Shown here piece by piece: positions 15,651 through 38,562 of a stretch of DNA of 64,000 nt. Where the stretch lies: contig QPGO01000117.1 of the NCBI GenBank assembly GCA_008632985.1, positions 1-64,000 of the forward strand, written 5' to 3'. The translations under genes were made by a program, and so were the position numbers. The notes under the pieces were generated by a model. That model was not told the DNA's origin and did no database searches. It worked only from the letters and a program-made list of their open reading frames with translations. Numbering within the stretch: the first letter of the stretch is position 1; every line of letters starts with the position of its first letter. The stretch is from Psammoneis japonica (Eukaryota).

Positions 15651-15919
15651 GGTGAAACGAAAAAAGATTGTGCTGTTGCCAGAAGGTTGTCGCGCGCGGT
15701 TAGTCGGCGGTCATCCTAACAGGGGATCGAGCTCTAAAATACGAGCTCTTTTCGTTTGTTTGGCTGAGTACACGGACATCAACCAGCTTTTTGGATTTGC
15801 AGAGCAATCAACTCCACTCCACCCGTCAGACATGTACAAGGTCTGTTAATTTTATTACGTCATTGTGGCAGCCAAGGTCGGTTGCAGGCCTGGGAGGAGA
15901 GAGAGAAAAAGCACAGGTC

Positions 15920-16096
15920 AGGTGCAAATCATCATGATGCTCTGCATGTTTCTTGTCCTCGCACCACAATGACGAAGCCCTGATGGAAGCCCAACTTTGC
16001 AAGCTTTTCACCTGAAACTGTCAAGAACATCCACTGAAATCAGAAGTTCCATCAAACAGGGTTTTTCTTGTTCCACATTGACACATCTCAAACATG
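15920..16096 (-). pseudogene. Decayed copy of the neutral ceramidase last exon plus 3' UTR
   Basis: GTRKTLFDGTSDFSGCS*QFQVKSL vs GTRKILFGGTSDFSGCSRQFQVRSL at 44761-44850. The stop TAA has become CAA and a CGA has become TGA. Similarity continues into the 3' UTR. Confidence 0.85.
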
Positions 16097-17001
16097 ACTT
16101 TGCAAGGAATGCAGGCAATGGCAAGTTCCTTGTGTCCTTTGCAAGCAGATGATTCCCCAACACATGGCAACTCTGTGCAAAGATTCTTGAGGGTCAATGG
16201 CTTGGTTCTTTGGTCACCTGTGGGCTGGTCTTGGAGTGCTTGCAAGAGCACATGGCAAAGAGCCAGGCACCAATGTGTGTTGCTTGGTTTTGGGGCAAGG
16301 CTCAGAGGAGTGAGGCGGTGATCACTTTCTGCCTGTTGCTTCTGCTTTCCATCTTGATTCTTGTGGCCTCAGCACTGGCAGAGCAAAAGGCGCAAGGTGC
16401 ACCCATCCTCATCCAGTCATGGGTCTTTCCAGTTGTGAGATCCAAAGGTGGGTGCCACATCATCCATGGCAGCTGTGATGCCCCCCCTGCCACCAGTGTT
16501 TCAAATTGTTCAGCCAAGTGTCAGCCTTCCTGCATGGCAGCTGCAAATGCTCTGAGGGTGTGAATCTGATGTTGTTGGGCAATGGTGAGCTTGTCCATGA
16601 ACAGGTGGTCTTTGAGTTCAATTTTGCCAAGAACAACTTTTCCCAGTGGGTGAAAGCTGTGTCTTGCTTGTTCTTGTCAGTCTCTTTGGCATTTGCTTCT
16701 TGATGGGATCCTTTGGTGTCAAGGAGGAGGTTGGTTGGGAAACAACTTCTCTGGGCAGCAGCAAGATGCAAAAATTGTGATGAAGCAAAAGGGCAAGTGT
16801 GTCATCAGACAAGTTGCTGTCTCTCAACAGGCAGTTGCCAACAACATTCATTTTGTCTCCAGGAGCTGTTGGCTGAAGGATTGACTGTTGGCACCCATCA
16901 TGACAGATGCAAACTTGCTGGCAATTTCTGTCTGCTCTGGGTCAGTCTCTTTGTCAAAGTTGGATTTGCACAGCCAGCCCATGGTGGCAGTGCTGTTGTC
17001 C

Positions 17002-17049
<48 letters not shown>
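17002..17049. repeat. Compound (TG)n(AG)n microsatellite
   Basis: Read directly. Confidence 0.95.
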
Positions 17050-17050
<1 letters not shown>

Positions 17051-17599
17051 ACAAGAGAAAGGAGGGAAGTTGCCTTTGATGCAAGTGATCCACACACACA
17101 TGACGCTGGTGATGAATTTCTTGGTGTTGAGGGTGAGACTGTGAACCAGGTGATGGGGGAGCTCCCAACAATGTGCTCAACCCATTTGGACATTGCAGCT
17201 GCCAATGCAGTGTTCTGATGTGCATCCAATCAGCAGACATGGGCGGGTTTGTGGCAAGTGATCAGGCTCAGGTTGATGCCTGGGCATGGATCATGCTGAG
17301 TCAGCACAGATGGCATGAGAAATGGAAAGCATGCAGGACAATGTGTCCAAGATGGTTCAGGCAACCAACAAGCTGTTCAATCTCCTTGAAGGCACATCCT
17401 CCCCTCTTGACAAGTCTTTGGAGTTGCTTGGACCAGGCAATGAGTTTGTGTTTGGGAAGCACAGTGCGTGCATGTCGTTTGTTCGACAGTCAGCCAAGGG
17501 CTGTCCCAAGCACTTCAAGATGGTCTTTGGTGCAGAGCTTCTTCAAACAAGTGAGATCACCCCTGGCAAAATCTTTGTGAGGGTGAGCTGGTTGGCCAA

Positions 17600-18060
17600 T
17601 GTGTGAATTCCCGGAAGTGCTGTTGCTCTTCTCTTCATTCAATGTTGTCGTCAATGTCAGGTGCAGCTGTCACTGTGTTGTCAATGCAGACCTTGACTGT
17701 GCCCATCATGTTGTTTAGAGGAATGTTGACTGGCAAGTTGAGAGCTGGTGTGAATGGCACATCATTGCTTTCAAAGCAGTGAGAAGGAAGGTGATCAAGT
17801 GTGGGGTTGTGGGGGACTGGGTTCCAGGACTTGCATTGAAGGATGTCATTGGACAGACCACACACTGATTTGGAGAGATGTCACCCCACAGATTTGGGTT
17901 CAGCTTGCCTCTGAAGGCAAATCATCTGAGCTGACAATGGATTGCATGGTGCTGTGGCACTTTTCAAGTGGCCTTGGTGACGGGCCAACTTGTGGTCAAT
18001 CTTCTGCAGCCATCTCTTGGCATTTGCGTTGGGCTGTTCCTTGGGTTGCAAATGGGAAAT
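17600..18060 (-). mobile_element. Reverse transcriptase relic of a DIRS/Ngaro-like (YR) retrotransposon
   Basis: Across frames: KIDHKLA..GHL, PNLWGDIS..CGLSNDILQC, and VKVCIDNT..APDIDDN (a mutated YIDD motif). Confidence 0.55.
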
Positions 18061-18181
18061 CCCCAAAAATGACTGATTGTGGTCATTGCATTGACTTCTG
18101 CTCAAACAATGAAGATCACAGACAAGTGCAAAAGCAATTGCATCAAACAGTTTGTGACCCTTTCTTTCAAAATGACTCTTG

Positions 18182-18547
18182 TGCAGTGTGCGACTGTTGT
18201 GTGCACATGTGTGATCATGCGTTATTTGCACGTCAATCGTGCCACAGTCGTGGATGCGTGCGAAGGACAGAACGATCACACAGAGTTGATCGGAAGTCGA
18301 AAATCGCAAATACGATCGATGGACGATGCTGACATCTTATGTGTCAAAAGCAATCGCATTCGGACCATCTGTTGTCACGATTACATTCTCCGAAAGGCCT
18401 TTTGTCTGTAGAAGCAGCACAGAAGCTTTAGGCCATTGAGAACTCGTTCGGAGAAACCAAAATCAAAGAGCAAAATTTAATCTCATAATTTCCACTTTTT
18501 GCACACTGTTCTGCTTTCGTTTGCACTCGTTCTTCGAGCACAGTGCA
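18182..18547 (+). repeat. 5' LTR of the Gypsy element
   Basis: Ungapped match to 22454-22819. Confidence 0.95.
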
Positions 18548-21500
18548 TTGTGCACACACACCACAGAAGGTAAAAAGCACGGAAAATGAAAATTTTAACT
18601 GATGTGCCTTTGTAAATTCTTCTACAAACAGGAGCGAATCGCATCAGTTCTGCTGGAATCGATTTCCGAGCGGAAGAAGCTCAATCCGAGCAGCACCTCA
18701 AGATGGAACGCTGTTTTTCGTCTGCCAAACGAGAGGATTCGCTCTAATGCGGTCTGTTCCAAGCACCCAAGGATCAAGGGCTCTCAAGCACACCGCATTG
18801 TCAAAAAATCTACACCAATTCATGGTTGCAGAGAATGCAAGTTCCGAGTCGATCAGATCCGAGAAACACGTCTGCCATGCAAGGAGAGACTGTTGGAGAG
18901 TTTTTTGAGACCGAATCGATGATCCTCGAGTCCAAGGAGCAAGAGGGAATCGTTGGAAAGTGCCTCAAGCGTCTCACAACTCATGTCCTCTGAGGAAATG
19001 CACTTCAGAATCAGGGAAATTATTTTCGAGACGACCTGAAGAAACCAGAGCCGCTCAACAGCAAAGAAGCCTCTGACAGACCCAAGAGGTCAATGATGAG
19101 AGTCTGCATGACCCTCAGATCGATTCTAAGTCGAATCTAGCGGGAAAACGAGCGCTGAGTTGTCAGCCATCACTCGCACCGCAAGGATGGCAGCATCAGC
19201 CTGCTGTCCAAAATGTTGAACTGCTGGATCACACCCTTGACAAGCTGATTGAGGTTTGAGTCGTCCAGAGGTCGGCAAGGACGTCTGTGACAAAAAAATT
19301 TGTCAACTCAGGCTCTGATGGCGCAGTTGATTCCACAATCAAAAAGGTTCCAATTTTGGTTCCAAAAATGGTCTCCTGTGTGGTGCCAGAACAATCCAAA
19401 GTGAGTGCAAGGTCCAATCTTTCAACAAAGAACACCTGCATCACGGATTCAGGCCATTCTGCAAAAGAACTGGCGAAAGAATGCCGTGGACATGACAAAT
19501 GTGATCCAAAACGGCACAGTTCAAATGGCAATCGCACGCGGTCGCATCGCGATGACGACAATGCCTCTCGCAAAGAAGAGTTGAATGCTGTGGTTGTCCA
19601 AGCAGTTCAAAAAAATGCTCAAAGCGAGTTCTTCACACAAAGATAAAAAGCGCAAGAGCAAAAATTAAGACTCTAAAACGCTTGGCGAACAAAACCATCA
19701 ATTTAGAAAAAATTGACCCAATCGAGTCCGATCAAAAATTTGTGCCGCTCGAGGAGTGTAACGCGTCACAGGACGTCTGGAAACCCAGAAAAAGCATCAC
19801 AGTGTGTCACACGAGTCCTGTTCTCGCTGTCCACATGACTGCTGCTCTGAGAAAAGCAAAAAACAAGCTTCCACGTGTTCTCTCGACAAAGAACATCGTC
19901 AGCCCATGATTTTACGCAAAAATCGTGCGAAAGTTGAGAACCAAAACATCCGCCACCAAAAAACTTGGGAAACCAAGGGTGAGCTCTTTACGACTGACAG
20001 CAAACACCGAATTCAGTTCTCACTGCGCGAATTTAAGACTTGCTGACATTCAAACAGCACATGTCAACAACACCAAATGCCCTTCAAGGTCGAATGATGT
20101 GATCATGGGACGCGACTTAATGTCCAGTCTTGCAATCACACTAGACTGCGCAATTGAAGAAATCAAATGGGAATGAAGCAATTACCCTATGAAGAATGTT
20201 GATGCACTCTTCGACACAAAAATGTTCCAGCTGAATGCCGATCACATTGAAAAATGTCACACAGTGAATGGAGTTAACAACGAGACCGATGGTTCTCGAC
20301 TCACATTGTCACGCCGTCGATTCTAATCAAGTGACAGCTACAGCAATGCATCTAAACCAAAAGAAGATAAACCACTCAGTCTCCTTCTTATGAGGCTTAA
20401 AATCCTTTTGAAAAAGTTCATTGGACAAATGAATGGGAAGAACCAGTGGATCTCACCATGAAAAATCTGACGCGATCACGCGACGTGTGAGAACCTTCTC
20501 CTATCATAGTCTTTGGAGGCGTCCATTTGAAAGGAATTTAACCAATTATGAAAGATTGAAGATTTAAAAATGAAGTTGCGATTCAAACATGGAACACCAC
20601 GATGTAAAATCAAGAAAGCACACGTCGTGCTCACATCAGAATAATGCCGTGGGGGAAAACGAGTGCCATAGACTTCCAATAAGAATCTATAGAGCCCCAG
20701 ATATTTTCATACAACACATGAGCGAACTCATGACAGGTTTAAAGTTGTCAGAACGACCATGAATGAACGTTTGTGCCTGACAGAAAGTAACTTCAAAATG
20801 TCACCTGTACAAGAAAAACTTGAAATGGCATTCATACGACTAGAACAGTCGCTTTGAAGGTTAACAAACAAAAGTCCTTCACTACTTAACTTGAAAAATA
20901 TTATCAAGACTTCCACACGTAACGGCACACATCTGATTACAAAGAAAATGGAGGCGATTCCGGCAATCGCAACATTGAGCAAAACGTAAAGAATATTACG
21001 ACAGCTTGTCGATGTACGTTACTGCTATAAAGACATGTAGTCTCAATGATCTCCTGTACATTTCTAGCCAAATCCACCTCAATAAAGGTCAAACGGCAAA
21101 AGGACAAGTACAGAACGAAAAGTCTCCGAAAATATGGAGCGCATCATATCAAAAACTATGTTATTATCAAACATGGTATTGTAATATTCAAGTCACAACG
21201 GAAAAAGAACTTCTGTCCATAGTGGAAACACTTAATAATTCCCGGAATATACTGTTTGGCCAACAGATTATTATATATACGGTTCATAACACACAACGGA
21301 CATAGTCATGCGTTGACGACTTAAAATAAAAAATTTCAGTCCCGAATTAAAATACATCAAGGACAAGGCGAACGTCGTCGCAAGAGCGATCAGCCGACTT
21401 ACTATAAAAAAATAGAACCTATGGAAAACCTCAGCACAGAAGAGTTAGCTGAAAAGGTCCTACCAAAATCCTACGACAATGTCTTTCCGTTAAATTGCAA

Positions 21501-22453
21501 AGTTCTCGATACTGAACAAAACGGGATAAAGACATTTCCTCCAAATTGTCGGACGCGACATATCATACGAACACTTTTCGTCGAGGCGAGCGAGATCAAA
21601 AATGCTCATGTCATAAGGAAAAAATCGCCTTATTTAGGGACGGTTAAAGAAAAAATCAGTGACAGATTGGTATACATTATACGTACCTACTTCACATTGG
21701 CAAAAGACAATCTCACAGCACCCGTACGATTGTAATGTACGATGTACGAGGCAAGACATAAATAACGTCACACGAGATGTGCCAAAGATTCAGAAACAAA
21801 ACACAAAAATGGACATTATTTATCCGAATAGTGCACAAAAGCAGTGCCTTCGGAATGACGAAATGTCACCGGCATGTCAAAAAGAAACGTCCAAATAACG
21901 ATCAAAATCCAAAGGAAAGATGGTTGAAGTAATAAAGAAATCCATAAAGGAATCCATAACCATCCCAGGATTATCAAGACGAAATGGTTAGAAAATATCC
22001 TTGACCATCGTTAATTACTTACGATGCGTGGAAGTGCAGCAGAGCAATGTGGCACATATAAAGTTAGCCAGCCAGAACTACACGAACTCCACAAGTAAAG
22101 TGAACGCCATAATAATTAAAAGAGCGTACATTAAGTGCTGGGCACAATGCCAGGTACAATCGACATCATGAAAAACACTGCAGGACAATTGGTCCTTGTG
22201 TTCATGTCAACAAAGAACGTCAACGAGAACACTCGACACAATGCTGTGCACACATGCATGTAAAGTGAGAAACAAACGATGTCACTCTCACAAGACATTC
22301 GGAAATTGGAACGGCCCCACATGGCCCACACAAAACGACAACAGTCATCACCAATGGCACAATGCAGTGAACGTGGAGACATTGTTGACACTGTCAATGT
22401 CCGTCGAATGGTCCACTTAACAAATGACTCTAATGTGCAATTGGGGAGGCGAG

Positions 22454-22819
22454 TGCAGCACGCGACTGTTGTGCACATGCATGTGATTGCACATCATTTG
22501 TGTGTCAATCGCGCCACAGTCGTGGATGCGTGCGAAGGACAGAACGATCACACAGAGTTGATCGGAAGTCGAAAATCGCAAGTGCGATCGATGGACGATG
22601 CTGACATCTCATGTGTCAAAAGCAATCGTGTTCGGACTGTCTGTTGTCACGATTGTATTCTCCGAAAGGCCTTTTGTCTGCAGAAGCAGCACAGAAGCTT
22701 TGGGCCATTGAGAACTCGTTCGGAGAAACCAAAATCAAAGAGCAAAATTTAATCTCATAATTTCCACTTTTCGTGCACTGCTCTACTTTCGTTTGCACTC
22801 GTTCTTCGAGCACAGTGCA
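22454..22819 (+). repeat. 3' LTR of the Gypsy element
   Basis: Ungapped match to 18182-18547, preceded by the PPT. Confidence 0.95.
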
Positions 22820-22859
22820 CTTGAATGTGTGGACATTGCATTTGGACACTTTTGCTCAT

Positions 22860-23070
22860 TCTCACTCTGGAGCCAATTTGTCCCACTCTAGAGCTGTTTG
22901 ACTCTAGAGAGAATGTCACACTCTAGAATCTTGGGTTCTAGAATGTCACACTCTAGAACCATTCAATTCTAGAGTGGCACACTCCAGAACTGCTCAACTT
23001 CAGATTGTCCTGTTGTGCAGCCATTTGACTCTAGAATGTCACACTCTAGAACTGCTCAACTCCAGATTGC
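22860..23070. repeat. Minisatellite with TCTAGA every ~15 bp (~30-bp higher-order unit)
   Basis: Repeated tctagaatgtcacactctagaac, with TCCAGA/TCTGGA variants. Confidence 0.8.
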
Positions 23071-26019
23071 AACGGCTGCTGTTGAGTTTTGCTTGCATCT
23101 GTGGCAGCTGATGGCACCATGGGTTCCAGCTGATGGTGCCATTTTTTTTTACAGAGCTTGGCAACAACCAGGATCAGATTGCAGCTCAGCCAAGATGTGG
23201 TCCATGTTTGGGCACATGCTGCCATTTTTGAGCAATTCTTTCAAGCTGTTCCCATGGTGTTCACAAACCCAAGATTCCAGCATCTTGACAGATGTGACAC
23301 ACTTGAACATGCAACATCAGGCTCTCATCAATTCAGGCTCAAAGACACTGTTGATGAAGGGTCTGGGGAGATGTTGCATGCTCAGGAACAAGAGCCACAT
23401 GGGACACAACATGGCAGCTTCATGTCTCCCCTTGTGTGCAGTGTGCCAAATGACAAATGAAGCAAAATTGAGCATGACATCATGTGCTGGCTTTTGACAA
23501 CCTCAAATTTCACCCAGGTCATTGGTGCCAGGTGCATTGTCCAGAAACAGCTTGTCCTTTTCAAAGCACAAATCACTGATTCCTGGAGTTCAAATGAGAA
23601 CTTCATCAAAATTTCCATTCTCCTGTGCGCAAGTGCAAAATCAACTTTGCCACTGACAGCCAAGGGGAGATGTTCACAAGCAACCACTTGATCTGCAACA
23701 GATGACTTGCCATGCTGCTTCATTGAATTTGGTGTGAGCCTCTGAAAGGATTGATTGAGTCCTTGGCAAAGCAGTGAAATAGAACATGTGTTCCAGAAAG
23801 GAATCTAAACAGCAAATTGCTCTCATTCAATGGTGCTTTTGTTGCAGCATCGACAGTTGTGAGGACAGCAATGCAACATCCAATCAGAGTCAGAGCCACA
23901 AGAACTGTCAAGACAGAAAAGCAGTGTGCAGGTGGGAGAAACAGTGCTTCATCACTCTTGACAAGATTGCAAAACACAAGCAAGTGCATGAGCCGGCACC
24001 TTGCAACAACAGAAGCCCAGACATGAGAAAAAGCACCCAAGAACTGACAAGGCAGCTGGCCCTGCGGATTTGGAGAGATCCTTGAGGACATCTCAACAAC
24101 TGTCAATCACTGTCTGAGATGAGCAACAGACAAGTCAGTTAAAATGTGTGCACACTTCAGAGTGGCTGCATCTCAAGCATGCAAAACAATTTGCGCTCAC
24201 CCCATGGATGCCCAAATCACCTTCCATTTCCAAAAGCTCTTCTTTTCCATTTTTGACCAACTCCATCATGTGTCTGTGTAGATCAGAGTGCACCAAAAGC
24301 ATGAGATCTGTCGCACACAGGCCAGCTTGCAATTTCAAGACACGCTGCCAGATTCAGAGTGACCATCCATCAGATTTCTGCTTGACAGAACAGCAGCACT
24401 GAAAGGTAGAATCCTTGCATCCATCCCATTCCCAACAATGGCGAAGCCAATGTTTGGTTGACATGTGTGGGGAGCATTGTTGGTGGATGATGTCACTGCA
24501 CAATGTGCATTGACAACATCAGGGCTGCTTGCAGGAAAAGCCTGCATTTGACCCCACTCAGCCTGCAACATGCATGGCACCAGAGGTGCAAGAATTCTCA
24601 TCCACAAAAACAGCACAAGGAATGCTGTGAACCCCAGTGCACAACCACAAATGCAAGACAGCCCACTCTGCTTCAAATGGGTGCCTTGACATTTCCTGTT
24701 GCAACAGCACAAGCAATGGTCAGTGGAGTCTGTGAGAATGTTTCTTTGATGTGCAGACTTCCAAGCCACAAACAACAAACAGCAGAGAAAACAAGCTCGC
24801 GAGAAGGTGCAAGGCACCTCTTTGCTTTGCCAAAATGATGGATGCAATGCCAAGACAATTTGCACTTGACAAACTGACAGACATTTCCCATTGCAATTGC
24901 ACAAGTGCTGGCAGACAGTGGAGTCCACCATGAGAACATTTCTTTGACATGCAAGCTGTCCAAGAAGCCACAAATCACAAAGCGCAGAGCAGACAAGCTC
25001 ACAAGACATGCACGCCATTTTGCTTTGCTGAAATGATGGACATGACCAAGCCAATTTGCACTCGAGCAAATGGCAGTTGCAACAGTGTGGGACCCCTTTG
25101 AAAACATTTGACACCAGGAAGGCACAATTGCCGGGGAACATTCATCCTGAGAGATGCCATTGCTGAAATGCCTGACTGCAAACACAAAGAAAAAAGATGA
25201 AGGTGTGAGCACAAACAGCAAATTTTCTCCATTGCCCACAGTGCTGCTGAACTTTGCTCACCACCACCAACAAAGCAGATGTCACAGATTGGAAAGGAAG
25301 CAGTGGGCTGAGGTGCCGCTGCTCTGCTTTGGACACAGAGCTGTCTGAAGTGCTTTTGACATGTCATGCCATGCTGTTCTGCACCACTTTCTCCTTTGTA
25401 GAAGTTCTTGCAGGTGCAGCATGTTGGGACAGGCAGAAGTGCCAGCATTGTCCACCTCATTGCATTGTTTTGTCATTCGTGTGTGTGCTGAGTGCGTGAA
25501 TGGTGTGCGGCTGACAACAGACAATTCACACACCTCTGGCATGGCACAAGGTGTCATTGCTCCCAGACTGGAGTTTGCAGCAACCAGAACACCAATGGCG
25601 AGTGCAAATTTCAACAAAATTCCTCTTTCAGACCCTCTCTGTGAAAGAGAAATGAACTTAGAGTGCAGATGGCTTTTTTCTCAGCTCACAACATTTTTGT
25701 GCTTCATGCTTTTGGCACAACATTGTTTTGCCAAAAACAGAAGCACAAAATAAAAAACAACATTGCTGACCCCTCACAGGCATGAGGAAAATTCCGGTGG
25801 TGTCAAGAATGGATGTGTTGACAGTGACAGCTGCTGAACTGCTGCAAAAGGGCCTCAAGCTCACCTGTTGTGACTGTGCACAGCACACAGCACCAATGCA
25901 TTTGAAGTGTCAAAGACTTGAAAATTGCACTTGGCTTCACCCAGCAGCCTTGTAAATCCTTGGCTTTGCTGGCACATTGGACGTTGGCCTTGTGATCTTG
26001 CAAGTGGACAAAAAAAACA

Positions 26020-26215
26020 GTTCTGGAGCAGAGATCATCTCAGTTCTAGAATGTCCCACTCTAGAGCCATTTTAATTCTAGAATGCCATGTTCCAGAGCT
26101 GTTCAATTCTTGAGTGTCACATTCTAGAGCTGCACAATTCCAGAGTGTCACATTCCAGAACTGTTTGATTCCAGAGTGTGCCACAATCCAGGCTGCATTT
26201 GTCCACTCTAGAACT
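26020..26215. repeat. Second TCTAGA minisatellite, same orientation as 22860-23070
   Basis: tctagaatgtcccactctagagc and ttccagagtgtcacattccagaac variants. Confidence 0.8.
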
Positions 26216-27879
26216 GCAAGCTGTCTCACAGAAGGGACAAATCATGCACAAACCAAACTCTCCCTTGTGATGCAACAAATGTCTTGCTTTTTGTTCCAAA
26301 TCATGACTTTTTTGTTGTTTGAGTCTCACAACAGTCTTTTGTCAAACCTGTGGATTGCCATTTCAGGTCATTTTGGGGGTGTTCCTGGAGGCAAAGGGGG
26401 AGCTGTCAGCTGCAAAAGAGGGGGAGAAGACAAGTGGCAAGGAGGAACTTGACCCTCTTGTTGTGTCTTCTGACTTGGTCTGTCTCTCAGAGCAAAGAGA
26501 AACTTGATCCTTTCTTCTTGATGGTTCACAATTTGGAGCTGACAGGGGGTTGCAAGGTGGAGCTTGATCTTCTTGTTTCTTCCTGGCATTTTTTGTCTTC
26601 TTCTTGTTTTGCAGGCAAGCTCACATGTGCAAGCTGTTCAGAGCTGGGGTGTCACAGGAAGAAGGTTTGGGCAGTGGACATGGTTGTCCACCAGAGGATG
26701 GGCTTCTGAGGCTTTTCCTTGAGGTTTTGAGTGGCTGAACTTGTGAGAGAGGCAATGCAGCAGCCCTTGACATGGAACTTGTCACAGCATTCTTGAGTGC
26801 CTTTGACTTTTGGCAAAGATTTGATGTTCAGGTGAAATGCCTTGCTGCAGTCTTTGCCTTGTTTGAGTTTCCAGGTGGGTCAGTTGACTTTGGCACATGA
26901 AAATTAAGTTCATTGAACATCACACACATGGCCAAAGGAGTCAACACACTGTCTGATCTCTGTGTCCACACCAATGTCATGCACCACCACATGCTCAACC
27001 ACTGTGACTCACAGGATCAACAAATCATTGGAGGAGACACCAAAAGAGCATTTTTTGATTTGCTGGATCAGGCATGAACTTCAGCGAGGCAATTGCTGAC
27101 CTCCTGCACAAATGGCACAATTCAGTGACTGGAGTCCAAAGCACACTGCAAAGTGTGAGAGTGTGCTGCCAGTTCTCCTGCCCAACCTTTGTGGTGGCCA
27201 CCTGTTGCAAGGAGAGCAATGAAAGGGGCAACATCAACTTTTGGTGGTTGGCTGAGGAACACTTTTTCTTGGCTTCTTGGGACTTCACACTTGGGTGAGT
27301 GGCTGCATCATTTCCAAGCATCTGAGGACACTGCTGCAGTTGTTGATGCAACTGCCCACATGCAGAACAGCAACCATGAAGTTGCTCTCTTGAGCAACAC
27401 CCTCCATGCAATGGGGGGCCAAATGATCTGTAAATCCTCCTGGGCTGTTGAGTGATGACCCCAGTCTTTGTTGCAAGAACCATGTGTGAGAGAGCAACAC
27501 AAACAATTCCAAATTAACAAGCTCCCCTTGTTCACAACAAAGTGTGGGATTTGTGCACTGACAATTGTCCATCATTTCCAACAACTTTCTGTGGGTTCAA
27601 ATCAAGAACATGTCATCCCAATGAGTTTTGCACCACTCAACAAGTTGACAACAAAGTGTGCTCCATTGATGTTTTCTGAGAACTGATGGACATTCAATCA
27701 GCTCTTGACTGGTGTTCTCAAATTCCTGTTTTGGGGTGTTTCTCTTTGACTCATCTCAAATCTTTGGTTTGCATGTCATTTCCACAGTTGAGTTTTGCCA
27801 CACAATCTCATTTGGAGCAATGTTGCTGCCACTGCATGGTTTGCATTCACCAAATCTCAATCAACTCCAGTTCTCTGTG

Positions 27880-30500
27880 GCTTGCCACAATCTTTCTGCA
27901 CATTCCCCCTGTTGGCCCAGTCGCTCACTTGCAACATCTTGTTCAATTTCCACGACTGACCCATCAAAGAACTTGCTTGCCTTTGGCAACCATCCCTTGT
28001 TCTTTCTGCATGTTGCACCACTTCCTGGCCACAAACTTTCATCTGCTCCATTGGGCTCACTTGAGACATCTCACATGCACTTTCTTTTCTCACCATGTGA
28101 AAGGCCCTGCGTGGAGGGACCTCACAGCTCAAACACTTCGACTCAAACATTTTGCCCGGTGTTCGTCCATCCTTCCGACACTCCCGTGCTTTTTGCACGG
28201 CGAAACACACCATCCCACCATGATGAGCATGTCGATTGCGGCAGCCTCAATGTTGACATGGGAAGCAGAATCGGGGCATGAATGTCTTTCTTGTGCCCAC
28301 AAGAAGGTTCCTGCATGGCGGCTCCGCTTCCCAAACTCCATTTGAGTTGTGTTTTTTACATTTGAGTGACTCAACCTTGTTTGCTGCCTCCGACAGAGCA
28401 CGAGTGACAAGCCAAAGACCCCATCGCAAGAGGTTCTCCCATCACTGACACATGCATTGAATGGTTTTAAGAAAAACAATGGTTGCTTCAAATTGACCAT
28501 GACTCCTTTCACTGGATTCGCAACAGCAGCAGCCTGCCGGCATGCCTGCAAACTGGAAGTGTTGGCGCTGGCAGCGTCATCATTTGTGCTGGCAGCAATT
28601 CACATTGTTGTGGTTGTCATGCCTTGAGAATCAACAGATCAAGTCGTTTCCTTTTTACAAACAAGTGCATCTTGAATGTGTTTGTCCAATGCCGAGAAGT
28701 CTTCGATCATGTCATTTCCGAAATGTGTCATCTGGGCTGCCGTGTGTGTCATCATCAATCTTCTTGGTGGCGACACAAATGACACACTCTCACATTTTGC
28801 AGCAATGGTGTCTGAGCCGATCCATGATGGTGTTGCAGCGTGCTCTCACGTGCGTTTCACACCTTGCCGTTTGGATTGCACCTCTCTGTTGCACACATTG
28901 TGACAGAAGCAGGCATTTGCAGCCAAGGCAACCAGTCCGTGTGACCAACCTGCACTCCCAAAATGATCTGGTGCCCTGGTTTTGCATGAAGTGGACTGCA
29001 GTGCTCAAGCCACTTCTAAGAAAACCAGTGGGCTGTTCACTCTGTCTGCTTCCGACGCCAAATCCTGCACAGACCACCACCCAATGCCGCCGCAATGCCA
29101 AACCCAACTCTCCATCCGACCTCCAATGACAAATCCTGCACAGCCACACTTCACTGCCAACATCCAACACCTCCTGCGCAGCTTCAACGAGACCTGCATC
29201 AACGTGGTTGACTCCAACACCACAGACTGAAACGCCACCTGCTCCTGCCAGCACAACGTCACCTCCGCCATCAGCCATCAGCGATGACTCCAACATGCTG
29301 CCAGCGCAATCACCGCCAAGTGTCCCCACTTGCGCCAACGCCACTGACTGAATTGCCAGCTGCTCCAGATCCAGAGACAATGACGCCGCCTGCATCAACG
29401 TCGCCATCAACAACGCCACCTGTGCCGATGCAAATGCAGCAACACCGCACACACCTCCCTCTGCCCAACCTCTGATGCTGTGAGTCCTGCAAAGACACCC
29501 ACCCAGCACCGCCGCCATCACCGAATCCATCCATGCAAAGCGCGGCCAAGCCCCTGGTGTCCCCTTTGACGAAATCACCACCACCTCGGGCAACTCATGC
29601 TCGCTCCAACAAAGCACCCAACACGCCACCACCTGTGTCAAGAAGACTCCATGTCGGACTGCACAACTGAACCAACATTTCTGTGGCGACTCTTGGCTGA
29701 TGCGAGTCATTCAAAAATTTGCTTGAGCATGTGTGGGACCCAAAACATTGCGAGTGTCGCACAAACACATGTCCTGTGATTGTTTCATCCAAAGGAAGAA
29801 GCAATGTGAGTTTTTCATGTCGCTCGGAAAGAAAAAAATGTGAGGTGCTGAAAAGTTGAAAAGGTCATGAGATGACACTCTGCACAATGCCTCGCATGAT
29901 TTTTCTGCAGCGGATGGAAGAACAGACAATGTGCCGGGCCCACGGCTGTGATGTCCCACCTTTCACGTGGTGTTCTCAGCACTGCACTCCCAGTCTTGCA
30001 GCCCCCCATTGCTGTCCAGTTCATTGGCAACTTCTGTCAAAGCTGACATGTGCTCCTGTGTGTTCTGCTCTGTTTGCACCTTGACACTCTTGTTGCAACT
30101 CTTGAGAGACATCTCTCTTGCCTCCTTGAGCTTGTCTGCTGGCTCCTGCACCAATCCTTGTTCTGTTGGCTGTTCTGAGTCTTTCTCCAACAAGGTGAAT
30201 GTGCTCAAGCCATTGTCTGCATCCTTGTGCACTGCCATGGCTGTTTCTGGCATGATGCTTTTTCACACAAGTCCTCCCTTCTGGTGACAGAGTTCCCTCA
30301 TTGTTGACCTCAACATCACAGTCTCTCATCAAAGCACTCTCCTTGTTGTTGCTCTTCTTGCACTCTGCATGCCACACATCAACAAAGTTGTTTTTCATGA
30401 GCATGCACCCAAAAGCTTTGGCACACAACGTGTTCATCCTCATGGGGTGCAACTGCACAGTCTTGTGCTTTTGTTTGGCATCCAACCATGCCATGCATTC
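27880..30500 (-). pseudogene. Decayed TE-associated ORF interrupted by the 28091-29972 element
   Basis: Removing the insertion rejoins ...DWECSAE|KRKCM*DVSS...KNKGWLPK in frame. Its AKAFGCMLMKNN motif resembles DDTLALLLHHNF at about 16800. Confidence 0.4.
28091..29972. mobile_element. Non-autonomous TIR DNA transposon (CAC...GTG ends, CMC/Chapaev-like)
   Basis: 14-bp TIR CACCAYGTGAAAGG (28091-28104, 29959-29972). 4-bp TSD TTCT. Retains CpG, unlike its flanks. Confidence 0.75.
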
Positions 30501-30614
30501 AGTCAACAAGCATGTTTGTTTGTTTTGTTTTGCATGCCAGAAGGTGGGTCAACTCTCACTGGCCCTCAGACAGACATGCAGAGTGAGAGCGCCTTGTTGA
30601 TCTGTGCATTGCCC

Positions 30615-31480
30615 TTGTGAGACAATGTCAAATGTGCTTGCCTGCTGAAAAAAGCATGAGAGGCTTGTGAAGTGCACAAGAGCCATGTGACCTGATCAGC
30701 TGTGCAAGCAAATGTGGCACTGGATGACTGTTTTCTGCCAGCTGTGTCAGCCAATGGCAGCAGAGCAGTTGCCAGAGTTCTTGTTGAAAGAAGAGCTCTC
30801 CAGTGGGCACAGGAGTTGCAGGGGCAGGTGCTGCATCTCACAGCCTTCCTTCTTGGCAGTGAGCAGGACTTTTTTGGCAGGCCAAGAAGGGCAAGCAAAA
30901 GCTCACTGTCACCTCACCTTGCTGAGTCAAGATGGTGCTGAGAAAATTGCCAATTTCTTCTTTGCAGCAAAGACTTTGACTTCACCATCAAGAATCCTCA
31001 CATTGCCAGCATGGCCAACAGCTTCAACTTGTTTGTTGCTTGTGAGACAATGTCAATGTGCTTGCCTGCTGAAAAGCATGAGAGGCTTGTGAAGCACACA
31101 AGAGCCATGTTGTGACCTGATCAGCTGTGCAAGCAAATGGCATTGGATGGCTGTTCTTTGCTGGTTGCATCAGCGCGCCATTGGCAGCAGAGCAGTTGTC
31201 AGAGTTCTTGTTGAAAGAAGAGCTGCTTGCATTCTCTCCAGTGGGCACAGGATTTGCAGGGGCAGGTGCTGCATCTCACAGCCTTCCTTCTTGGCAGTGC
31301 ACAGGACCATTTTGGCAGACCAAGAAGGGCGAGCAAAAGCTTGCTTTCACCTGGCCTTGCTGCACCCTGATGGTGCTGAGAAAATTGCCAATTTCTCCTT
31401 TGCAGCAAAGACTTTGACTTCACCACCATCAAGAATCCTCACATTGCCAGCATGGCCAACAGCTTCAACTTGTTTGCTGC
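30615..31480. repeat. Tandem duplication of about 430 bp; a third partial copy lies at about 36360-36680
   Basis: gagacaatgtca...tgacctgatcagctgtgcaa...catcaagaatcctcacattgccagcatggccaacagcttcaacttg occurs twice. Confidence 0.85.
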
Positions 31481-31740
31481 TGGTGCTTTTTGAGCTTTGT
31501 TTCTGCACCCACAGGTGTTCAACCAACCTTCACCACTTGTTTGTCAGGTTGTCATCCTGTCTGCAGCTGTGGCGCAGTGCAAGGCAACTGCAGTCAGAGC
31601 CTCTTTGCAGCACAAGTTCTTGTGCACAGAGCTGTGATGGATGTGGAGCATCAGCCAGAGGTGTGTCACACAACACAGGACATCTTTGGCTGATGAAACC
31701 AAGAGAAAGCATCTCAAACTTTGCAGTGGAGAGGATGTTT

Positions 31741-32189
31741 TGCAACGCACAGCTGCCAATGAGAGTCAACGTATCACGGCGACGTGTTGCAGCCTTTAAA
31801 TGTCACAAAGGGCGTGACAAAAATGACCTTCTGTCTGCATGCATGCTGCACCGTGAATTCACAGCGGAGTGGTTCATCTCGCAACCATCAGGCAGGAGGC
31901 CAGGGGTTCGAAACCCTGAGTGGGAGTTGTCTGCAGCAACGTTGATCACGGTCGAACGCGCAAATCTCTGTGCAGTTCTGTGTGTTCCTTCGCACGCACC
32001 CACACTGTTCCGCCAAAACCGTGCAGTGTCAGTGCACGTCAGTAAAGAGCCGCATGGACGCGTGACACATGGGGAGGAGTGCAGTGTGCAGCTGCCAATG
32101 AGAGTCAATGCATCACGGCGACGTGTCACAGCCTTTAAATGTCACAAAGGGCGTGACAAAAACAACCTTTTGTCTGCATGCATGCTGCA
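31741..32189 (+). mobile_element. TRIM (449 bp) with 110-bp LTRs
   Basis: LTRs at 31741-31850 and 32080-32189 with TGCA...TGCA ends. TSD GTTT. PPT GGGGAGGAG (32071-32079). Confidence 0.9.
31853..31930 (+). promoter_or_regulatory. tRNA-derived segment with Pol III A and B boxes inside the TRIM
   Basis: A box (C/T)AGCGGAGTGG at 31862-31872 with D-stem GCGG/TCGC. B box GGTTCGAAACC at 31905-31915 with T-stem CAGGG/CCCTG. The anticodon arm is degraded. Confidence 0.7.
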
Positions 32190-32599
32190 GTTTTGCTCTG
32201 CAGTGGCGCAGCTTTTGGAGCACCAGAGAGACAGCTGTCATGGAGGGCAAGCAACACACAACAAAGAGGAGTTGCAAATTTGTTGCGGGTCCAAAGGGGG
32301 TGCTTCCTGCAAGGAAGCAATGCTGCTGCTTCACCTGACAATGCTTGCCACCCATCTCCCAGTGTCGTCAGAGGAGACACCTGAGACCATGATGTGTGCG
32401 CAGTTGAAGGGGCCAGTGTGTGCTTCAAGTGCGTGGGAACAGTTTCCAGCTGTGCACAGGCAGCTGTGCACTGATGAGAAAATTCTCTTGATTTTTTCCT
32501 TGAGCAGGGGTTTCATCCAAAGGATCACTTGAGAAAAAATCAAGGGGTGGCTTTGCCACAAAAGAATTGAAACAGCTGCGTTTCTTGTCCAAGAGAGAA

Positions 32600-34200
32600 A
32601 GCAAGACCCCTGATGATGGCACTCTGTGTCACTTTGCAAGGCACCACGCATCAGATTCAAAATCAAACAGGAAAGAAAGCTCTCCTCTCAGCGAGCCAAG
32701 CTTCAAAATGATGCTCAAGAACTGCTTGCTGCACACAGTGCATCATGTCCAAAAATTGCAACTTCAGAAAATTACAAAAAACTGGCAAAGTGGGAAATGA
32801 TGACCACTTTGCAACAAATTCAACTTCATGACATGAAACCATTTGGAAGCTTCTCCATGATCTCTGTTGCCTTGTTGGGTGACTCTGAAAGTGCAGCACT
32901 GCTGTGGCATTGTGTCCATCAGATCTTTGTCCTTCAAATTTGGGAACCTGCTGCAAGAACCCCCCAGCTCATTCAGCTCAGGACAAGTGGGCAAACCTCC
33001 CTTTCACAACCACTCAAAAGATCCAGCAAAGAACAGATTTGGGAATTCCACACCCTGTGTGGGTGGTTGTAAAGATCAACCTTCCACTGCAGCAGTGTTG
33101 TTGGTGCCAAAGGTGTTTGGTGTGCTGGAAAACCCCAACATGATGCAGGTTTGGAAAGACACAAAAAGTCTTGCCAATGCTGCAAAGGTGTTTGGCACAT
33201 TGGAGAACACCAAATCATTGACTTGGATGGCCTCTCTGGGCACATTGGGTTGCAGCTGGTTTTTTTGGATTGTTGCACTCATTGCAAAAACAAGTGGTGC
33301 ACAGAGCCAGATCACAGTCACAACCCAATGTGATTTTGCCACAGACAATTTTGTGCTTCTTGTTGTGCAGCTCAGTGAGGCAGTGTGGCATGCTGCAGAT
33401 GCAGCCTGGTTTGATGCAACATGCTGAGGGGCAAGATCTTTCTTCTTCTTCTTCTTCTTCCCTGGCACTTGACTGACCCCTCTGCAAAGACACAAGAGCC
33501 CCTTGAATGGAGCCAGAATTGCCAACAAAAAAAGCCAGATGTCCTCTTTTTGCATGCCATCTCTGTGACTCAGATGGGGGCATCTTGCTTTTCTGTCCCC
33601 TTTGACTGGCTGGCCTTCTGGCCAACATGCCTTGCAACTCTTGTGCTGAATGATCAGCTGGGTTGTGCTGGTGTGTGACAGCTGGTTGTTTCTGAACCTG
33701 TGACATGATGCCTGTCTGGATGACTTTGTTGCCCATGCATTGGGCCCAAATCTGCACATCTGACCAGGTGCCTGGTTTTTGCATTCCTTGTCATCTTTGT
33801 TGGGAGCATGCACTGCAACCCCCTGTCTCTCTGTTCTGTTGTCTTTTTGCAGATGTGGCCTTCCACAGCTGAAATGCACCATGGTGAGTGTGGCTGTTGC
33901 AGACAGCAAAAATCCAGACCTTGGCTCAGCTTTGCTCATTGACTCTGTCCAGCGTCCAATTGGCACACATCAACTGCTTCCCGCAGCAATGACCAGTCAG
34001 GTTTGGAGGGGTGTGTCTAGCTTTTTCATCCAAAAACAGCTGGGCTCACATTTCATCACTCCGCTCCAGCACTCTGGAGTTGTCTTTGTTCTGACTCCCA
34101 CTGCAACATCCTGACAGCATTGCTGCACTCAACCATTTCTGACAAAGGCCAGTTTTTCAGAGGTGCTCACATTTGCAGCAGAGCTTGGAAAACACCTTCA
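32600..34200 (+). repeat. Diverged ~1.6-kb direct repeat, copy 1 (unclassified TE relic)
   Basis: Shares gcatcagattcaaaatcaaacag, ctcaggacaagtgggcaaacct, tggagccagaat and aaaggccaNtttttcagaggtgctcac with 39010-40700. Confidence 0.8.
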
Positions 34201-37200: not shown

Positions 37201-37379
37201 GATCACAATCGTCAATGTGTCTTCCACTGCAACTTTGTTTGTCTCTGTCCCACAAAATCTGCCTCCAACCCCAATGTTCCAAAACACTCCTTTGCACAAG
37301 CCATCAATCGACTGGCCTTGTGTGTGTCAAACACAGGAGGACAACACTTGGAATCCATGCCACAATCCAATGCCACATC

Positions 37380-38420
37380 GACTGTTCCACCAATTCCCAT
37401 GGTCTGCATCATCCAACTCCATCAACAAATGACTGTTGTCAGGACAATCCTTTCTCACATGCCCAACCTCATTGTGTTTCCAGCATCCAGTCTGCTTCTT
37501 CTTCTTGTGTGCAAAACTTGTGCCTTCCTCAGGTTTTTTGTTGGTCCTGCTGGTGTCCAACAACCACCTGTGGTGCCTCCTTGGCTGAACTGGGACAAAT
37601 GTCACCCCCCAATGTGAGCTGCTGATGAAGGTCTTTCAAGACATGCCAACATTCCTTGGCACCTTCCACTGGCATCACCGCTGACAAGAGCTTGTTCCTT
37701 TCTTTGTTCCAGGTGTCACAGGCTTCCTTGCTGAACCCATCTTGTCTCTCAGCAATTTCTTCCAGGATGGTCCTGCCATGGGACATCTCTGCTGCTTCAG
37801 CCATGTTCACAAACCAATTGTGATGATCTTGAAGTGCCTCTCCCTTGTCTTGACAAATGAGGGCCAACTGCTTCAAAGCCTTGACAGCCTGGGCATGCAA
37901 GTTTGTCTTCTCATTTGCATCAAACAAGATTGACTTGAGAACATCCAGCAGTGCCACCACTCCCCGCTCCTCAGCAACTCTTGCAAACTCTGCCACTCCT
38001 TCAATTTTGTGATGAATGGCCTTTGCACATTGCCCCACAATTGTGCTGAACACCCTCACCTTCTGCATCTTGCAGACCATGTTCTGTTTGGCACAGTGAC
38101 CACATTGCTTGCCCCCAGATTGCCTTGTCCTTCTTTGACAACATGGTGTCTCCCAATGGACAATCCAGATCTGTTGGCATGCTCTCCTGCCTCACAGATG
38201 CCAACACCTGCATCTTGTCTGGCCCAAACATTCTTCCAACAACACTCAACAATCTTCCTCATGGTTTCCATGTGACCTCTGCCTGTCATCCTGACTTGGC
38301 AATGGTGTCATGCACCCACTCCTTCAAATCTTTTGTGCTTTTGCACTCAGCTGTGTCCTTGCCCATGTTTTCTGGGACTTGTGTTGGAGTTTTGCTGCTT
38401 GCCAACTGCTGCACACTCTG
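37380..38420 (-). mobile_element. Copia (CoDi-like) gag relic with zinc knuckle
   Basis: KVRVFSTIVGQC...LLDVLKSILFDANEK...LKDLHQQLTLGGDICP, followed by CWKHNEVGHVRKDCP (degenerate CX2CX4HX4C). Confidence 0.75.
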
Positions 38421-38562
38421 TCTTGCCAGCCCCAACATGGCCTCACCACACCCTCTTTCAGCAGACCCTTGGCAGCTTCTTTGACAGCAAGGCCCTCAAG
38501 AGATTGTTTCTTTGCCCTCATCCAGCTGACTCGCTCATCACAATCTGCCAACACAAGGCATG

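Follow-up and report, generated by a model that had tools for sequence, protein, structure and literature searches.

The sequence analysed here, hereafter the window, is a single 64-kb stretch of diatom DNA, from which all counts are taken. In this window TpA is converted to TpG or CpA after insertion, in chromosomal DNA and within sharply bounded domains. The transitions are very probably specific to TpA and governed by its flanks, the pair that mutates being that of 5'-TAY. Overall, we favour with moderate confidence a flank-dependent TpA transition hypermutation acting across diatom repeats and pseudogenes, with a deaminase as its likeliest agent; the adenine-deaminase step, taken by itself, is tentative.

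Bounded domains depleted in TpA

About half of the window consists of repeat or pseudogene DNA nearly devoid of TpA (Table 1). TA occurs at 2.1-7.6 per kb in this purged DNA and at 35.7 per kb in genic DNA. The observed/expected ratio (O/E) of TA is 0.53 in genic DNA, 0.13 in DNA purged of TA only, and 0.03 in DNA doubly purged of TA and CG, and that of CA is 1.18, 1.51, and 1.85 in the same order. The tRNA-ligase ORF of the window has matches in diatom proteins at 36-45% identity. Contigs of run X1 (~62x) reproduce the unique purged stretches with 0-3 other letters, and with none at 16001-18180, although the platform of the run is not recorded and the data are possibly those of the assembly. 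The read layout was viewed for 40 of 1517 variant rows.

Table 1 Features of the window
Feature	Position	Strand	Remarks
TA-purged domain, CpG kept	1251-7500		Pfam-matching ORFs stripped of tyrosines inside
Repeat pair 1260-1426/3764-3930	1260-3930	+	93% identical
FAD-monooxygenase-like ORF (pseudogene)	5774-6916	-	Polarises mutations: Tyr to Cys/His
Doubly purged (TA + CG) domain	16001-18180		Unique depth; 2 kb holds 1 TA and 10 CG
5' LTR of degenerate 4.6-kb LTR retroelement	18181-18547	+	Direct repeat with 22453-22819, 91% identical
LTR element internal region	18548-22452	+	TA gradient; word depth 4800-8900 vs ~62 in unique DNA
3' LTR of 4.6-kb LTR retroelement	22453-22819	+	Direct repeat with 18181-18547
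First TCTAGA array	22880-23060 (tandem 22887-23045)		31-bp units; 8 intact TCTAGA; some TCCAGA/TTCAGA
Long tract purged of TA + CG	23001-41000		CG partly kept at 28001-30000 and 31741-32250
Second TCTAGA array	26040-26215 (tandem 26045-26207)		31-bp units; 5 intact TCTAGA; some TCCAGA/TCTTGA
Tandem pair TRIM_A	30614-31485	+	Copies 30614-31044 and 31039-31485, 87% identical
TRIM_B	31741-32189	+	110-bp direct repeats 31741-31850 and 32080-32189; very high-copy family

Four repeat pairs are aligned: the LTR pair, TRIM_B, TRIM_A, and the pair 1260-1426/3764-3930, which lies outside the region covered by the initial annotation. In three young pairs all 51 mismatches are transitions, with no transversion among them, and 47 fall in YR steps; the LTR pair has 27 of its 29 mismatches there. 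The YR columns of the four pairs comprise 19 CA/TG, 6 TA/CA, 4 TA/TG, and 7 TA/TA, together with 32 CG/CG, 6 CG/TG, and 2 CG/CA. Because 32 CpGs remain intact, the 19 CA/TG double differences are not derived from CpG. TRIM_A holds no TA, four of these double differences, and 24 other substitutions; the pair at 1260/3764 contributes five double differences and four of the seven TAs retained in both copies (CTAG three times, CTAA once).

The direction of change can be read from the FAD-monooxygenase-like ORF. Nine of its alignment columns carry tyrosine in 30% or more of 10 homologues; in these it has Cys four times and His, Tyr, Phe, Leu, and Gln once each. The Cys and His codons, written with the preceding base, are C|TGC (three times), G|TGC, and A|CAC. 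In a control gene, Cys occupies none of 33 Tyr columns (p=0.0011).

Inside the LTR element TA is almost gone from 18.7-20.2 kb but close to its normal level at 20.5-22.2 kb, observed/expected counts in 250-bp bins being 0/18 at 19251 and 21/24 at 21001. That this 3' interior is hardly purged though both LTRs are counts against the explanation we favour. The sole basis for the putative Gypsy label of the element is a sub-threshold RT_RNaseH match at 20979-21302 (23.1 bits; cut-off, 24.8). The depth of the bin at 31661-32189, which holds TRIM_B, is 78987, compared with ~62 for unique DNA.

Flanking bases and the survival of TpA

The initial annotation proposed that YTAR sites survive. In 30.5 kb of purged DNA, TCTAGA arrays excluded, the proposal holds strongly: 54 of 118 surviving TAs are YTAR, 60 are mixed, and 4 are RTAY, whereas the flank composition of CA/TG predicts 23, 52, and 24%, respectively (binomial p=7e-8 for YTAR and 1e-9 for RTAY). 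It fails window-wide, where the rarest NTAN words are CTAA/TTAG, TTAA, and CTAG (O/E 0.23-0.30; GTAC, 0.40). The excess is invisible on that scale because 1123 of the 1377 TAs belong to ordinary genic DNA, in which 16% are YTAR and 31% RTAY.

The aligned pairs show the same bias. TAs kept in both members were described as mostly CTAG, CTAA, or TTAA; in accordance, six of the seven over the four pairs are YTAR (CTAG three times, TTAA twice, CTAA once; the other is ATAA), as are two of three in the two pairs originally named. In comparison, YTAR accounts for 2 of 10 TAs confined to a single copy (Fisher p=0.015), and Y..R flanks surround 1 of 19 CA/TG double differences (p=2e-4), the others being R..Y (11), Y..Y (6), and R..R (1). 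Survivors in young DNA purged of TA only are Y..R in 39 of 87 cases and R..Y in 4. Loss of TA per copy is ~0.9 at sites with one or two permissive flanks (0.89 at non-YTAR sites) and ~0.3 at Y-TA-R. Contrary to the flank rule, Y..Y flanks occur in 2 of 6 TA/CA single differences and in 6 of 19 double differences.

Relative to genic DNA, survival is 0.44 for TTAA, 0.23 for CTAG, 0.20 for CTAA/TTAG, 0.16 for GTAA/TTAC, and 0.10 for CTAC/GTAG, and falls to 0.07 for ATAA/TTAT, 0.02 for ATAG/CTAT and for ATAC/GTAT, 0.01 for GTAC, and 0 for ATAT. These values fit a per-strand rule, A>G at 5'-TAN with N = T > C > G > A, the fitted decay exponents being 2.60 for TAT, 1.62 for TAC, 0.89 for TAG, and 0.41 for TAA. 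The fit of the additive per-strand model is marginal (chi2 21.0, 12 df), that of uniform decay far worse (143.9, 15 df). Exponents and model thus support the expected bias of TAY over TAR. In doubly purged DNA, mixed-context products are skewed to RCAR+YTGY (1455, vs 843 RTGR+YCAY) relative to genic DNA (1333 vs 1104; p=2e-9), the coding baseline being a poor proxy for ancestral repeats. Each flank may work on its own strand, though the younger DNA purged of TA only shows no significant skew against the same baseline (627 vs 498; p=0.59).

In terms of base pairs, the T:A pair that mutates is very probably the one whose A precedes a pyrimidine or, equivalently, whose T follows a purine, with the +1 order T > C > G > A. 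R-TA-Y sites (ATAT, GTAC, ATAC/GTAT) would be targeted on both strands and disappear, and TTAA, CTAG, and CTAA/TTAG, with TAY on neither strand, would persist. The TCTAGA arrays were likewise said to persist. Two arrays do hold 13 of the 19 TCTAGA words in the window, but about 8 of about 22 units, counted by eye, read TCCAGA, TTCAGA, or TCTTGA, so their decay is slowed rather than prevented. On this reading they persist because CTAG presents no TAY on either strand.

A possible secondary target at CAY draws on the flanks of CpG: 6 of 8 CG/TG and CG/CA differences are R..Y, compared with 3 of 32 retained CpGs (p=5e-4). Likewise, R..Y makes up 40% of the CpGs remaining in doubly purged DNA vs 22% of those in genic DNA; the most frequent context among the former is GCGC (21 of 105). 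Action on CAY would generate CpG at R-CG-Y; CpG loss would be a separate, slower process of older repeats, probably via 5mC deamination.

Candidate agents

The agent would be a sequence-reading base-modifying enzyme aimed at silent or repeated DNA. The likeliest is an adenine deaminase acting at 5'-TAY, where A would become inosine and be read as G; restriction to transitions, with T on the 5' side of the target and a pyrimidine on the 3' side, is compatible with a DNA adenine deaminase. A processive single-strand deaminase would be expected to leave strand-coordinated runs. The initial annotation called for a search for such clusters, and their absence from the window counts against such an enzyme (522 of 1014 adjacent pairs in the same state; 511 +/- 16 in permutations). 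Nor is CA:TG over-dispersed (chi2/df 1.10). The natural loop of TadA is UACG, and the +1 preference here, T >= C, speaks against a TadA-type enzyme, which has C there. No deaminase-like HxE...PCxxC motif is found within the 64-kb window.

Thymine-directed chemistry, in which T at 5'-R-T-A in silent DNA is modified or removed to give T>C, for example by TET/JBP-type oxidation to 5-hydroxymethyluracil or by a glycosylase followed by misrepair, is unlikely, though the strongest of the alternatives. Because 5'-RTA is 5'-TAY on the opposite strand, the same T:A pair is attacked and all the sequence evidence suits it equally. JBP-type enzymes and dinoflagellate hydroxymethyluracil prefer T before A, and the absence of strand-coordinated runs suits an enzyme on duplex DNA. 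However, a route through glycosylase and abasic site is expected to give some transversions, and the young pairs have 0 of 51.

Regeneration of TpA is improbable. A context-blind purge followed by dipyrimidine C>T (YCA>YTA, which the opposite strand shows as TGR>TAR) would produce a YTAR excess, and a flank-weighted gain model with two, one, or no paths gives YTAR:mixed:RTAY of 47:53:0, close to the observed 46:51:3. However, TAs that both copies share at one site are true survivors and are nearly all YTAR, doubly lost sites are almost never Y..R, and 6 of 10 single-copy TAs lie in RTA or TAY contexts, which are impossible under the gain model. The bias, moreover, is already present in young DNA purged of TA only.

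Error-prone patch repair of the Pol eta type at WA motifs, the first candidate of the initial annotation, is very improbable. At WA, Pol eta errs most often by TA>TG, a point in its favour, and transversions make up roughly half of Pol eta hypermutation at A:T. Also in favour of Pol eta are the four non-YR substitutions of the LTR and TRIM_B pairs (18310, 18509, 31745, 31831), all AA/AG in purine orientation as annotated, with no GA/GG in young pairs, and at least two private A>G changes of the LTR-element copy in AA context (19066 and 20396). The count is exact, but the excess is within chance (4 of 154 A-preceded vs 0 of 133 G-preceded purine columns; Fisher p=0.13; binomial 0.083), and CA/CG is no rarer in young pairs (7 of 166). 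AA>AG has no preference over GA/GG in TRIM_A (5/127 vs 5/77; 10 of its 24 non-YR substitutions are transversions) or in nine older pairs (58/630 vs 53/436). Nor is AA depleted: from genic through TA-only to doubly purged DNA, its O/E reads 1.17, 1.19, and 1.22. Accordingly, the suggested WA>SA bias is not borne out, and AA>AG as a secondary target is not demonstrable; a secondary target, if any, would be N-A-Y with N = C or A, not G. Further against Pol eta, TA loss per copy at non-YTAR sites far exceeds the few per cent of AA columns that differ, the strong +1 pyrimidine effect is foreign to WA, and strand-coordinated patches are absent. The lack of transversions is contrary to hypermutation involving Pol eta, described as producing both transitions and transversions in a review that names WA as a hotspot (PMC6423074). 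An adenine deaminase or a thymine-directed enzyme is the better, if unproven, fit.

Least probable of all is that retroelement RNA or cDNA was edited before integration, or that modified bases gave rise to errors of assembly or base calling: retroelements are among the targets, and a misreading of symmetric modified dinucleotides as TG or CA is conceivable, but the two LTRs of one element diverge both ways, with TG and CA in each copy, non-retroelement DNA (the FAD-monooxygenase pseudogene, unique-depth tracts) is purged too, and the k-mer contigs, maybe of the assembly's own data, repeat the purged sequence.

Comparison with known systems

RIP, known from Neurospora and other ascomycetes, is C>T at CpA and creates TpA. 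Like the diatom process, it is transition-only and dinucleotide-specific, mutates both strands of chromosomal DNA, and inactivates repeats or duplicated genes domain by domain. The chemistry and footprint are opposite, since the diatom process destroys TpA and makes CpA/TpG. Pol eta mutagenesis at WA in somatic hypermutation shares frequent TA>TG and differs in targeting AA nearly equally and in yielding transversions, neither of which is seen here. TadA/ADAT2-type deaminases and base editors resemble the diatom process in making only A>G and in preferring an A flanked by pyrimidines, T on its 5' side, the TadA variant ABE8e A48E being reported to edit A within 'YAC' (PMC13109818); they differ in their natural substrate, the tRNA anticodon loop, and the diatom process has +1 T >= C and lacks strand-coordinated clusters.

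The closest case known, as reported, comes from the chlorarachniophyte Bigelowiella natans, in which viral inserts, integrated giant-virus and virophage DNA, are hypermutated A:T>G:C at TpA only (Mettrop et al., bioRxiv 10.64898/2026.01.13.699255, 2026). According to that preprint, 230 of 231 viral-insert mutations in mutation-accumulation lines are A>G or T>C, all these at TpA; reverse transcriptase and DDE domains are over-represented in TpA-poor coding sequences; the Discussion summarises RIP as above; and the authors likewise propose an adenine deaminase, a homologue of ADAT2. Both systems have transitions only at TpA, to TpG/CpA, confinement to delimited tracts of selfish or non-host DNA, and long-term TpA depletion with CpA+TpG gain. 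However, the B. natans process was measured de novo, whereas the diatom case is deduced from one window. The targets shown mutating in B. natans, a rhizarian, are single-copy viral inserts still at 3.3% TpA, and those of the diatom, a stramenopile, are LTR/TRIM repeats and pseudogenes at TA O/E 0.03-0.13, with CpG loss too. The TAY>TAR rule does not appear in the main text of the preprint, from which the words 'context', 'flanking', and 'trinucleotide' are absent. YTAR survival would be a sequence signature by which to recognise the enzyme responsible for this rare form of genome defence.

TpA-purged domains and the mutations within them

The window carries the footprint of TpA-targeted hypermutation: the mutations fall almost only on TpA, giving TpG or CpA, they are exclusively transitions in the young repeat pairs, and they are restricted to bounded regions, the remaining DNA being normal. 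The observed/expected ratio (O/E) of TA, 0.32 for the whole window, drops to 0.19 in 18182-32189; CA and TG stand at 1.4-1.7. Along the window, TA per kb is bimodal (0-10 versus 30-45), and the domain edges at ~7500, 16000, and 41000 are sharp at 250-bp resolution. Genic DNA (7501-16000 and 41001-64000) has 35.7 TA per kb (O/E 0.53), and the repeats and pseudogenes, which make up ~30 kb of the window, have as few as 2.1-7.6. In purged DNA, TA O/E is 0.03-0.13, CA O/E is 1.51-1.85, and GC is steady at 0.45-0.50. Purged tracts either keep CpG (TA-only purged) or have lost it as well (doubly purged).

Features of the window; word depth is that of run X1, a public read run with a depth of ~62 over unique DNA
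Feature	Position	Strand	Remarks
Tracts without TA and CpG	1-1250, 16001-18180, 23001-28000, 30001-31740, 32251-41000		CG O/E 0.09
TA-purged tracts, CpG kept	1251-7500, LTR element, 28001-30000, TRIM_B
TA-purged domain, CpG normal	1251-7500 (~6 kb)		ORFs with Pfam matches
F5/8 type C ORF	4415-5383		In the 1251-7500 domain
FAD_binding_3 ORF	5774-7392	Minus	In the 1251-7500 domain
5' LTR bin	18161-18700		Word depth 28661
TRIM_B bin	31661-32189		Word depth 78987
TCTAGA arrays	22880-23060, 26040-26215	Same orientation	31-bp units

The longest ORF, a tRNA ligase (52588-55875, minus strand), matches only diatom proteins (36-45% identity), indicating that the window is nuclear diatom DNA. Among 500-bp windows, 51 of 128 have a TA O/E below 0.15 here, compared with 0 of 500 in 30 other diatom-like loci (TA O/E 0.46-0.88, similar to the genic DNA of the window); these loci were found via the tRNA ligase, and their mostly genic contigs say little on the repeats of other diatoms. 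The purged unique stretches are matched by contigs of run X1 (~62x word depth) with 0-3 other letters; no sequencing platform is recorded for this run, which may be the very data behind the assembly.

In the three young repeat pairs (the LTR pair, the short TRIM_B pair, and 1260-1426/3764-3930), every one of the 51 mismatches is a transition, and YR steps hold 47 of them. Variant places in the read layout comprise 1203 transitions and 301 transversions. When TRIM_A is added as a fourth pair, the YR columns are CA/TG 19, TA/CA 6, TA/TG 4, TA/TA 7, CG/CG 32, CG/TG 6, and CG/CA 2. The presence of CA and TG at one site means that both copies altered an ancestral palindromic step. That step was TA, because 32 CpGs are intact; with 8 changed, CpG decay is ruled out as the origin of these double differences. 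By simple counting, each copy has lost ~0.78 of its TAs; the figure is 0.30 for YTAR sites and 0.89 for all others. Differences between the two LTRs of one element run in both directions, and DNA other than retroelements is affected, so the process acts on chromosomal DNA after insertion.

The FAD-monooxygenase-like ORF in a purged domain offers a second view of direction. Tyr is found in at least 30% of 10 homologues at nine columns, in which the ORF itself has C in four and H, Y, F, L, and Q in one each; C occupies 0 of 33 Tyr columns in a control gene (p=0.0011). The ORF thus polarises the TpA mutation independently, Tyr having become Cys or His. The ORFs of the 1251-7500 domain have 0-0.5% Tyr, with 5-8% Cys in two of four and 1.9-2.6% in the other two. 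They look like gene copies struck by the same hypermutation, which remain open because TAA and TAG have been erased. The region 31093-32532 and other purged tracts contain long ORFs (e.g., 479 aa) in several frames, without family match, as a TA step is part of two of the three stop codons.

The purge of the LTR element, whose internal region is 18548-22452, is uneven: TA is nearly absent from the LTRs and the first 1.7 kb, and at 20.5-22.2 kb it stands at 60-90% of the expected level, RTAY shows no deficit (33 of 122), and the copy number is similar. Possible causes are spreading that starts in the LTRs, an association with transcription, and recent conversion with an unpurged copy as donor. 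A Pfam search of its 24 internal ORFs gave only a sub-threshold RNase H-like match. Word depth in the bins of the element is 4800-28661, ~80-450 times that of unique DNA, and TRIM_B exceeds unique DNA more than 1000-fold. The TRIM_B and LTR families, very abundant, CpG-retaining, and only partly TA-purged, are probably young; the TRIM_B pattern had 0 matches in metagenome contigs. Contigs link 18177 to 22845 and 22843 across inserts of 25 and 23 other letters, which are distinguished by CA/TG steps, at depths of 37.1 and 34.5, about half that of unique DNA. These junctions may represent an allele or paralogue that lacks the LTR element. The two TCTAGA arrays flank ~3 kb that has neither TA nor CG, and they may mark the ends of an old non-autonomous element.

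Influence of the flanking bases

The initial annotation proposed that YTAR sites survive, and inside purged DNA the effect is strong. Of 118 surviving TAs, counted with the TCTAGA arrays left out, 54 are YTAR, 60 are mixed, and 4 are RTAY, compared with 23/52/24% predicted from the flanks of CA/TG steps in purged DNA. The YTAR and RTAY shares are 16% and 31% in genic DNA and 19% and 27% in the unpurged interior of the LTR element, and every contrast with the survivors has a p value below 1e-5. YTAR words are the rarest in a window-wide NTAN table, which is unusable as a test because it mixes genic and purged DNA and is dominated by 1123 genic TAs. Relative to genic DNA, survival is highest for TTAA (0.44), followed by CTAG (0.23), CTAA/TTAG (0.20), GTAA/TTAC (0.16), and CTAC/GTAG (0.10), and falls to 0.07 for ATAA/TTAT, 0.02 for ATAG/CTAT and for ATAC/GTAT, 0.01 for GTAC, and 0 for ATAT.

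The same pattern appears in the repeat pairs. TAs kept in both copies are Y..R in 6 of 7 cases, and the 19 sites lost in both copies are R..Y in 11, Y..Y in 6, and R..R and Y..R in one each (p=2e-4). The TCTAGA arrays do persist, as also proposed, with 13 intact sites and several units reading TCCAGA; they need no special protection, because their sites are C-TA-G.

The predicted TAY>TAR bias is likewise present. The fitted per-strand decay of A>G at 5'-TAN has exponents of 2.60 for TAT, 1.62 for TAC, 0.89 for TAG, and 0.41 for TAA, and the additive per-strand model fits with a chi2 of 21.0 on 12 df, against 143.9 on 15 df for uniform decay. Per-strand action predicts that R-TA-R gives R-CA-R and Y-TA-Y gives Y-TG-Y. 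In the mixed contexts of doubly purged DNA, R-CA-R plus Y-TG-Y number 1455 against 843 for the alternative products (genic DNA, 1333 against 1104; p=2e-9); in TA-only purged DNA the bias is not significant (627 against 498; p=0.59 relative to the same genic counts). Per-strand action of the flanks is the best description rather than a demonstrated one, the baselines being uncertain.

An excess of YTAR could also arise if new TAs were regained by C>T at dipyrimidines, and this model predicts YTAR, mixed, and RTAY sites at 47:53:0, nearly the observed split. However, TAs common to both repeat copies are true survivors, 6 of 10 one-copy TAs are in contexts that the gain route does not reach, and the YTAR bias is already present in young, CpG-retaining purged DNA. 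Regain is therefore disfavoured relative to survival.

R..Y flanks surround 6 of the 8 CG/TG and CG/CA differences, compared with 3 of 32 kept CpGs (p=5e-4). A weak side activity on CAY, which would create CpG, is possible. The doubly purged tracts hold 105 remaining CpGs, of which 40% are R-CG-Y (22% in genic DNA) and 21 are GCGC, the commonest context, a flank bias opposite to that of the surviving TAs. These CpGs may be newly made from RTGY/RCAY.

Secondary targets and candidate agents

AA>AG had been named as a secondary target on a WA-like pattern. The underlying count is right, as the four non-YR substitutions in the two pairs considered are all AA/AG, but it is neither significant nor general. 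In the young pairs, AA/AG differences occur at 4 of 154 sites and GA/GG at 0 of 133 (p=0.13; binomial 0.083). CA/CG differences (7 of 166, mostly CAY with 6 of 79) are at least as frequent as AA/AG, contrary to the proposed WA>SA bias. TRIM_A (30614-31044/31039-31485), the third pair within 18182-32189, shows 24 substitutions outside YR steps, 10 of them transversions, and differs at 5 of 127 AA/AG and 5 of 77 GA/GG sites; nine older pairs have 58 of 630 and 53 of 436, respectively. AA O/E is not lowered by the purge (1.17 in genic, 1.19 in TA-only purged, and 1.22 in doubly purged DNA). In favour of a side target are A-A-Y at three of the four AA/AG sites, young pairs free of GA/GG, and two private A>G changes of the LTR-element copy in AA context. 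Private differences, at which the window stands alone against all other contigs, number 10 among the 40 of 1517 variant rows listed, a biased handful: the A>G type in AA (two), CA (two), and TA (one), the C>T type (three), and transversions (two). A weak side activity on N-A-Y, where N is not G, is possible; the WA motif is not supported.

The pattern fits a sequence-reading, base-modifying enzyme, and our preferred guess is an adenine deaminase at 5'-TAY. Such a deaminase, one of two agents suggested in the initial annotation, is possible. Of the YAC context expected for a TadA/ADAT2-like enzyme, the pyrimidine rule agrees with the window, and the base before the mutated A is T far above C and A, with G lowest; the +1 position, however, is not specific for C (T 2.60, C 1.62). 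TadA derivatives are described as preferring 'YAC' (PMC13109818), and the B. natans preprint proposes an ADAT2 homologue as the candidate enzyme (10.64898/2026.01.13.699255). A 5'-TAY site reads 5'-RTA on the opposite strand, so an A-directed and a T-directed enzyme cannot be told apart by sequence alone. The HxE...PCxxC deaminase motif was not found within the 64-kb window.

Strand-coordinated runs, a suggested check, are not seen: 522 of 1014 adjacent pairs are in the same state, compared with 511 +/- 16, a test of limited power, given that only some CA/TG steps derive from TA. Both this result and the order T >= C at +1 make a TadA-like single-strand deaminase somewhat less likely. Patch repair by Pol eta, the other suggested agent, is unlikely: 0 of 51 mismatches are transversions, the +1 effect is strong, and no strand-coordinated runs are present. 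In addition, its WA repair needs AA as a target comparable to TA, at odds with AA/AG at 4 of 154 and AA O/E of 1.17-1.22. Biased gene conversion is ruled out by the unchanged GC and the dinucleotide-specific effect.

Relation to known systems and implications

Fungal RIP is C>T mutation at CpA, yielding TpA-rich, GC-poor repeats. The footprint in the diatom is the opposite and is not that of RIP, with TpA erased, CpA/TpG doubled, and GC at 0.45-0.50. To our knowledge, targeted A:T>G:C DNA hypermutation was first described in eukaryotes in a single 2026 preprint. A literature search on diatoms with TpA depletion or repeat-induced point mutation returned nothing relevant among the papers listed, that preprint, on Bigelowiella natans, being the only relevant paper found.

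In mutation-accumulation lines of B. natans, the preprint reports 231 of 302 nuclear mutations in integrated giant virus and virophage, of which 230 are A>G or T>C, all 230 on TpA, at ~6e-7 per site per generation, a de novo rate ~1000-fold over background (10.64898/2026.01.13.699255). The diatom case is of the same kind, in another supergroup. The B. natans mutations were observed de novo, whereas those of the diatom window are known from their footprint. Compared with what the preprint describes, the TpA erosion in the diatom is far more complete, its targets include retroelements and pseudogenes, and it is accompanied by CpG loss. The flank rule is not reported in the preprint's main text, where the words flanking, context, trinucleotide, and diatom are absent.

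We propose tentatively, at less than even confidence, a diatom genome-defence enzyme ('reverse RIP') that would recognise 5'-TAY in silent or repeated DNA, whichever strand carries it, and change A to G, as part of an old, SAR-wide DNA-editing immunity. The age and breadth would follow from the same TpA-only signature being seen live in a chlorarachniophyte. If so, TpA, and hence TAA/TAG stops and all tyrosine codons, would be erased from transposons and stray gene copies, CpG would be made at RTGY/RCAY as a by-product, and the enzyme could be sought by its four-letter fingerprint. The flank rule (TAT >= TAC > TAG > TAA, with YTAR spared) is a checkable fingerprint for candidate deaminases or thymine-modifying enzymes. 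Purged DNA, nearly without TAA/TAG, has many long spurious ORFs and real pseudogenes that stay open, so gene prediction is misled in such genomes. With a second case, far more complete and in a diatom, TpA hypermutation would no longer be peculiar to one alga, and its targets would extend beyond viral inserts to retrotransposons and pseudogenes.
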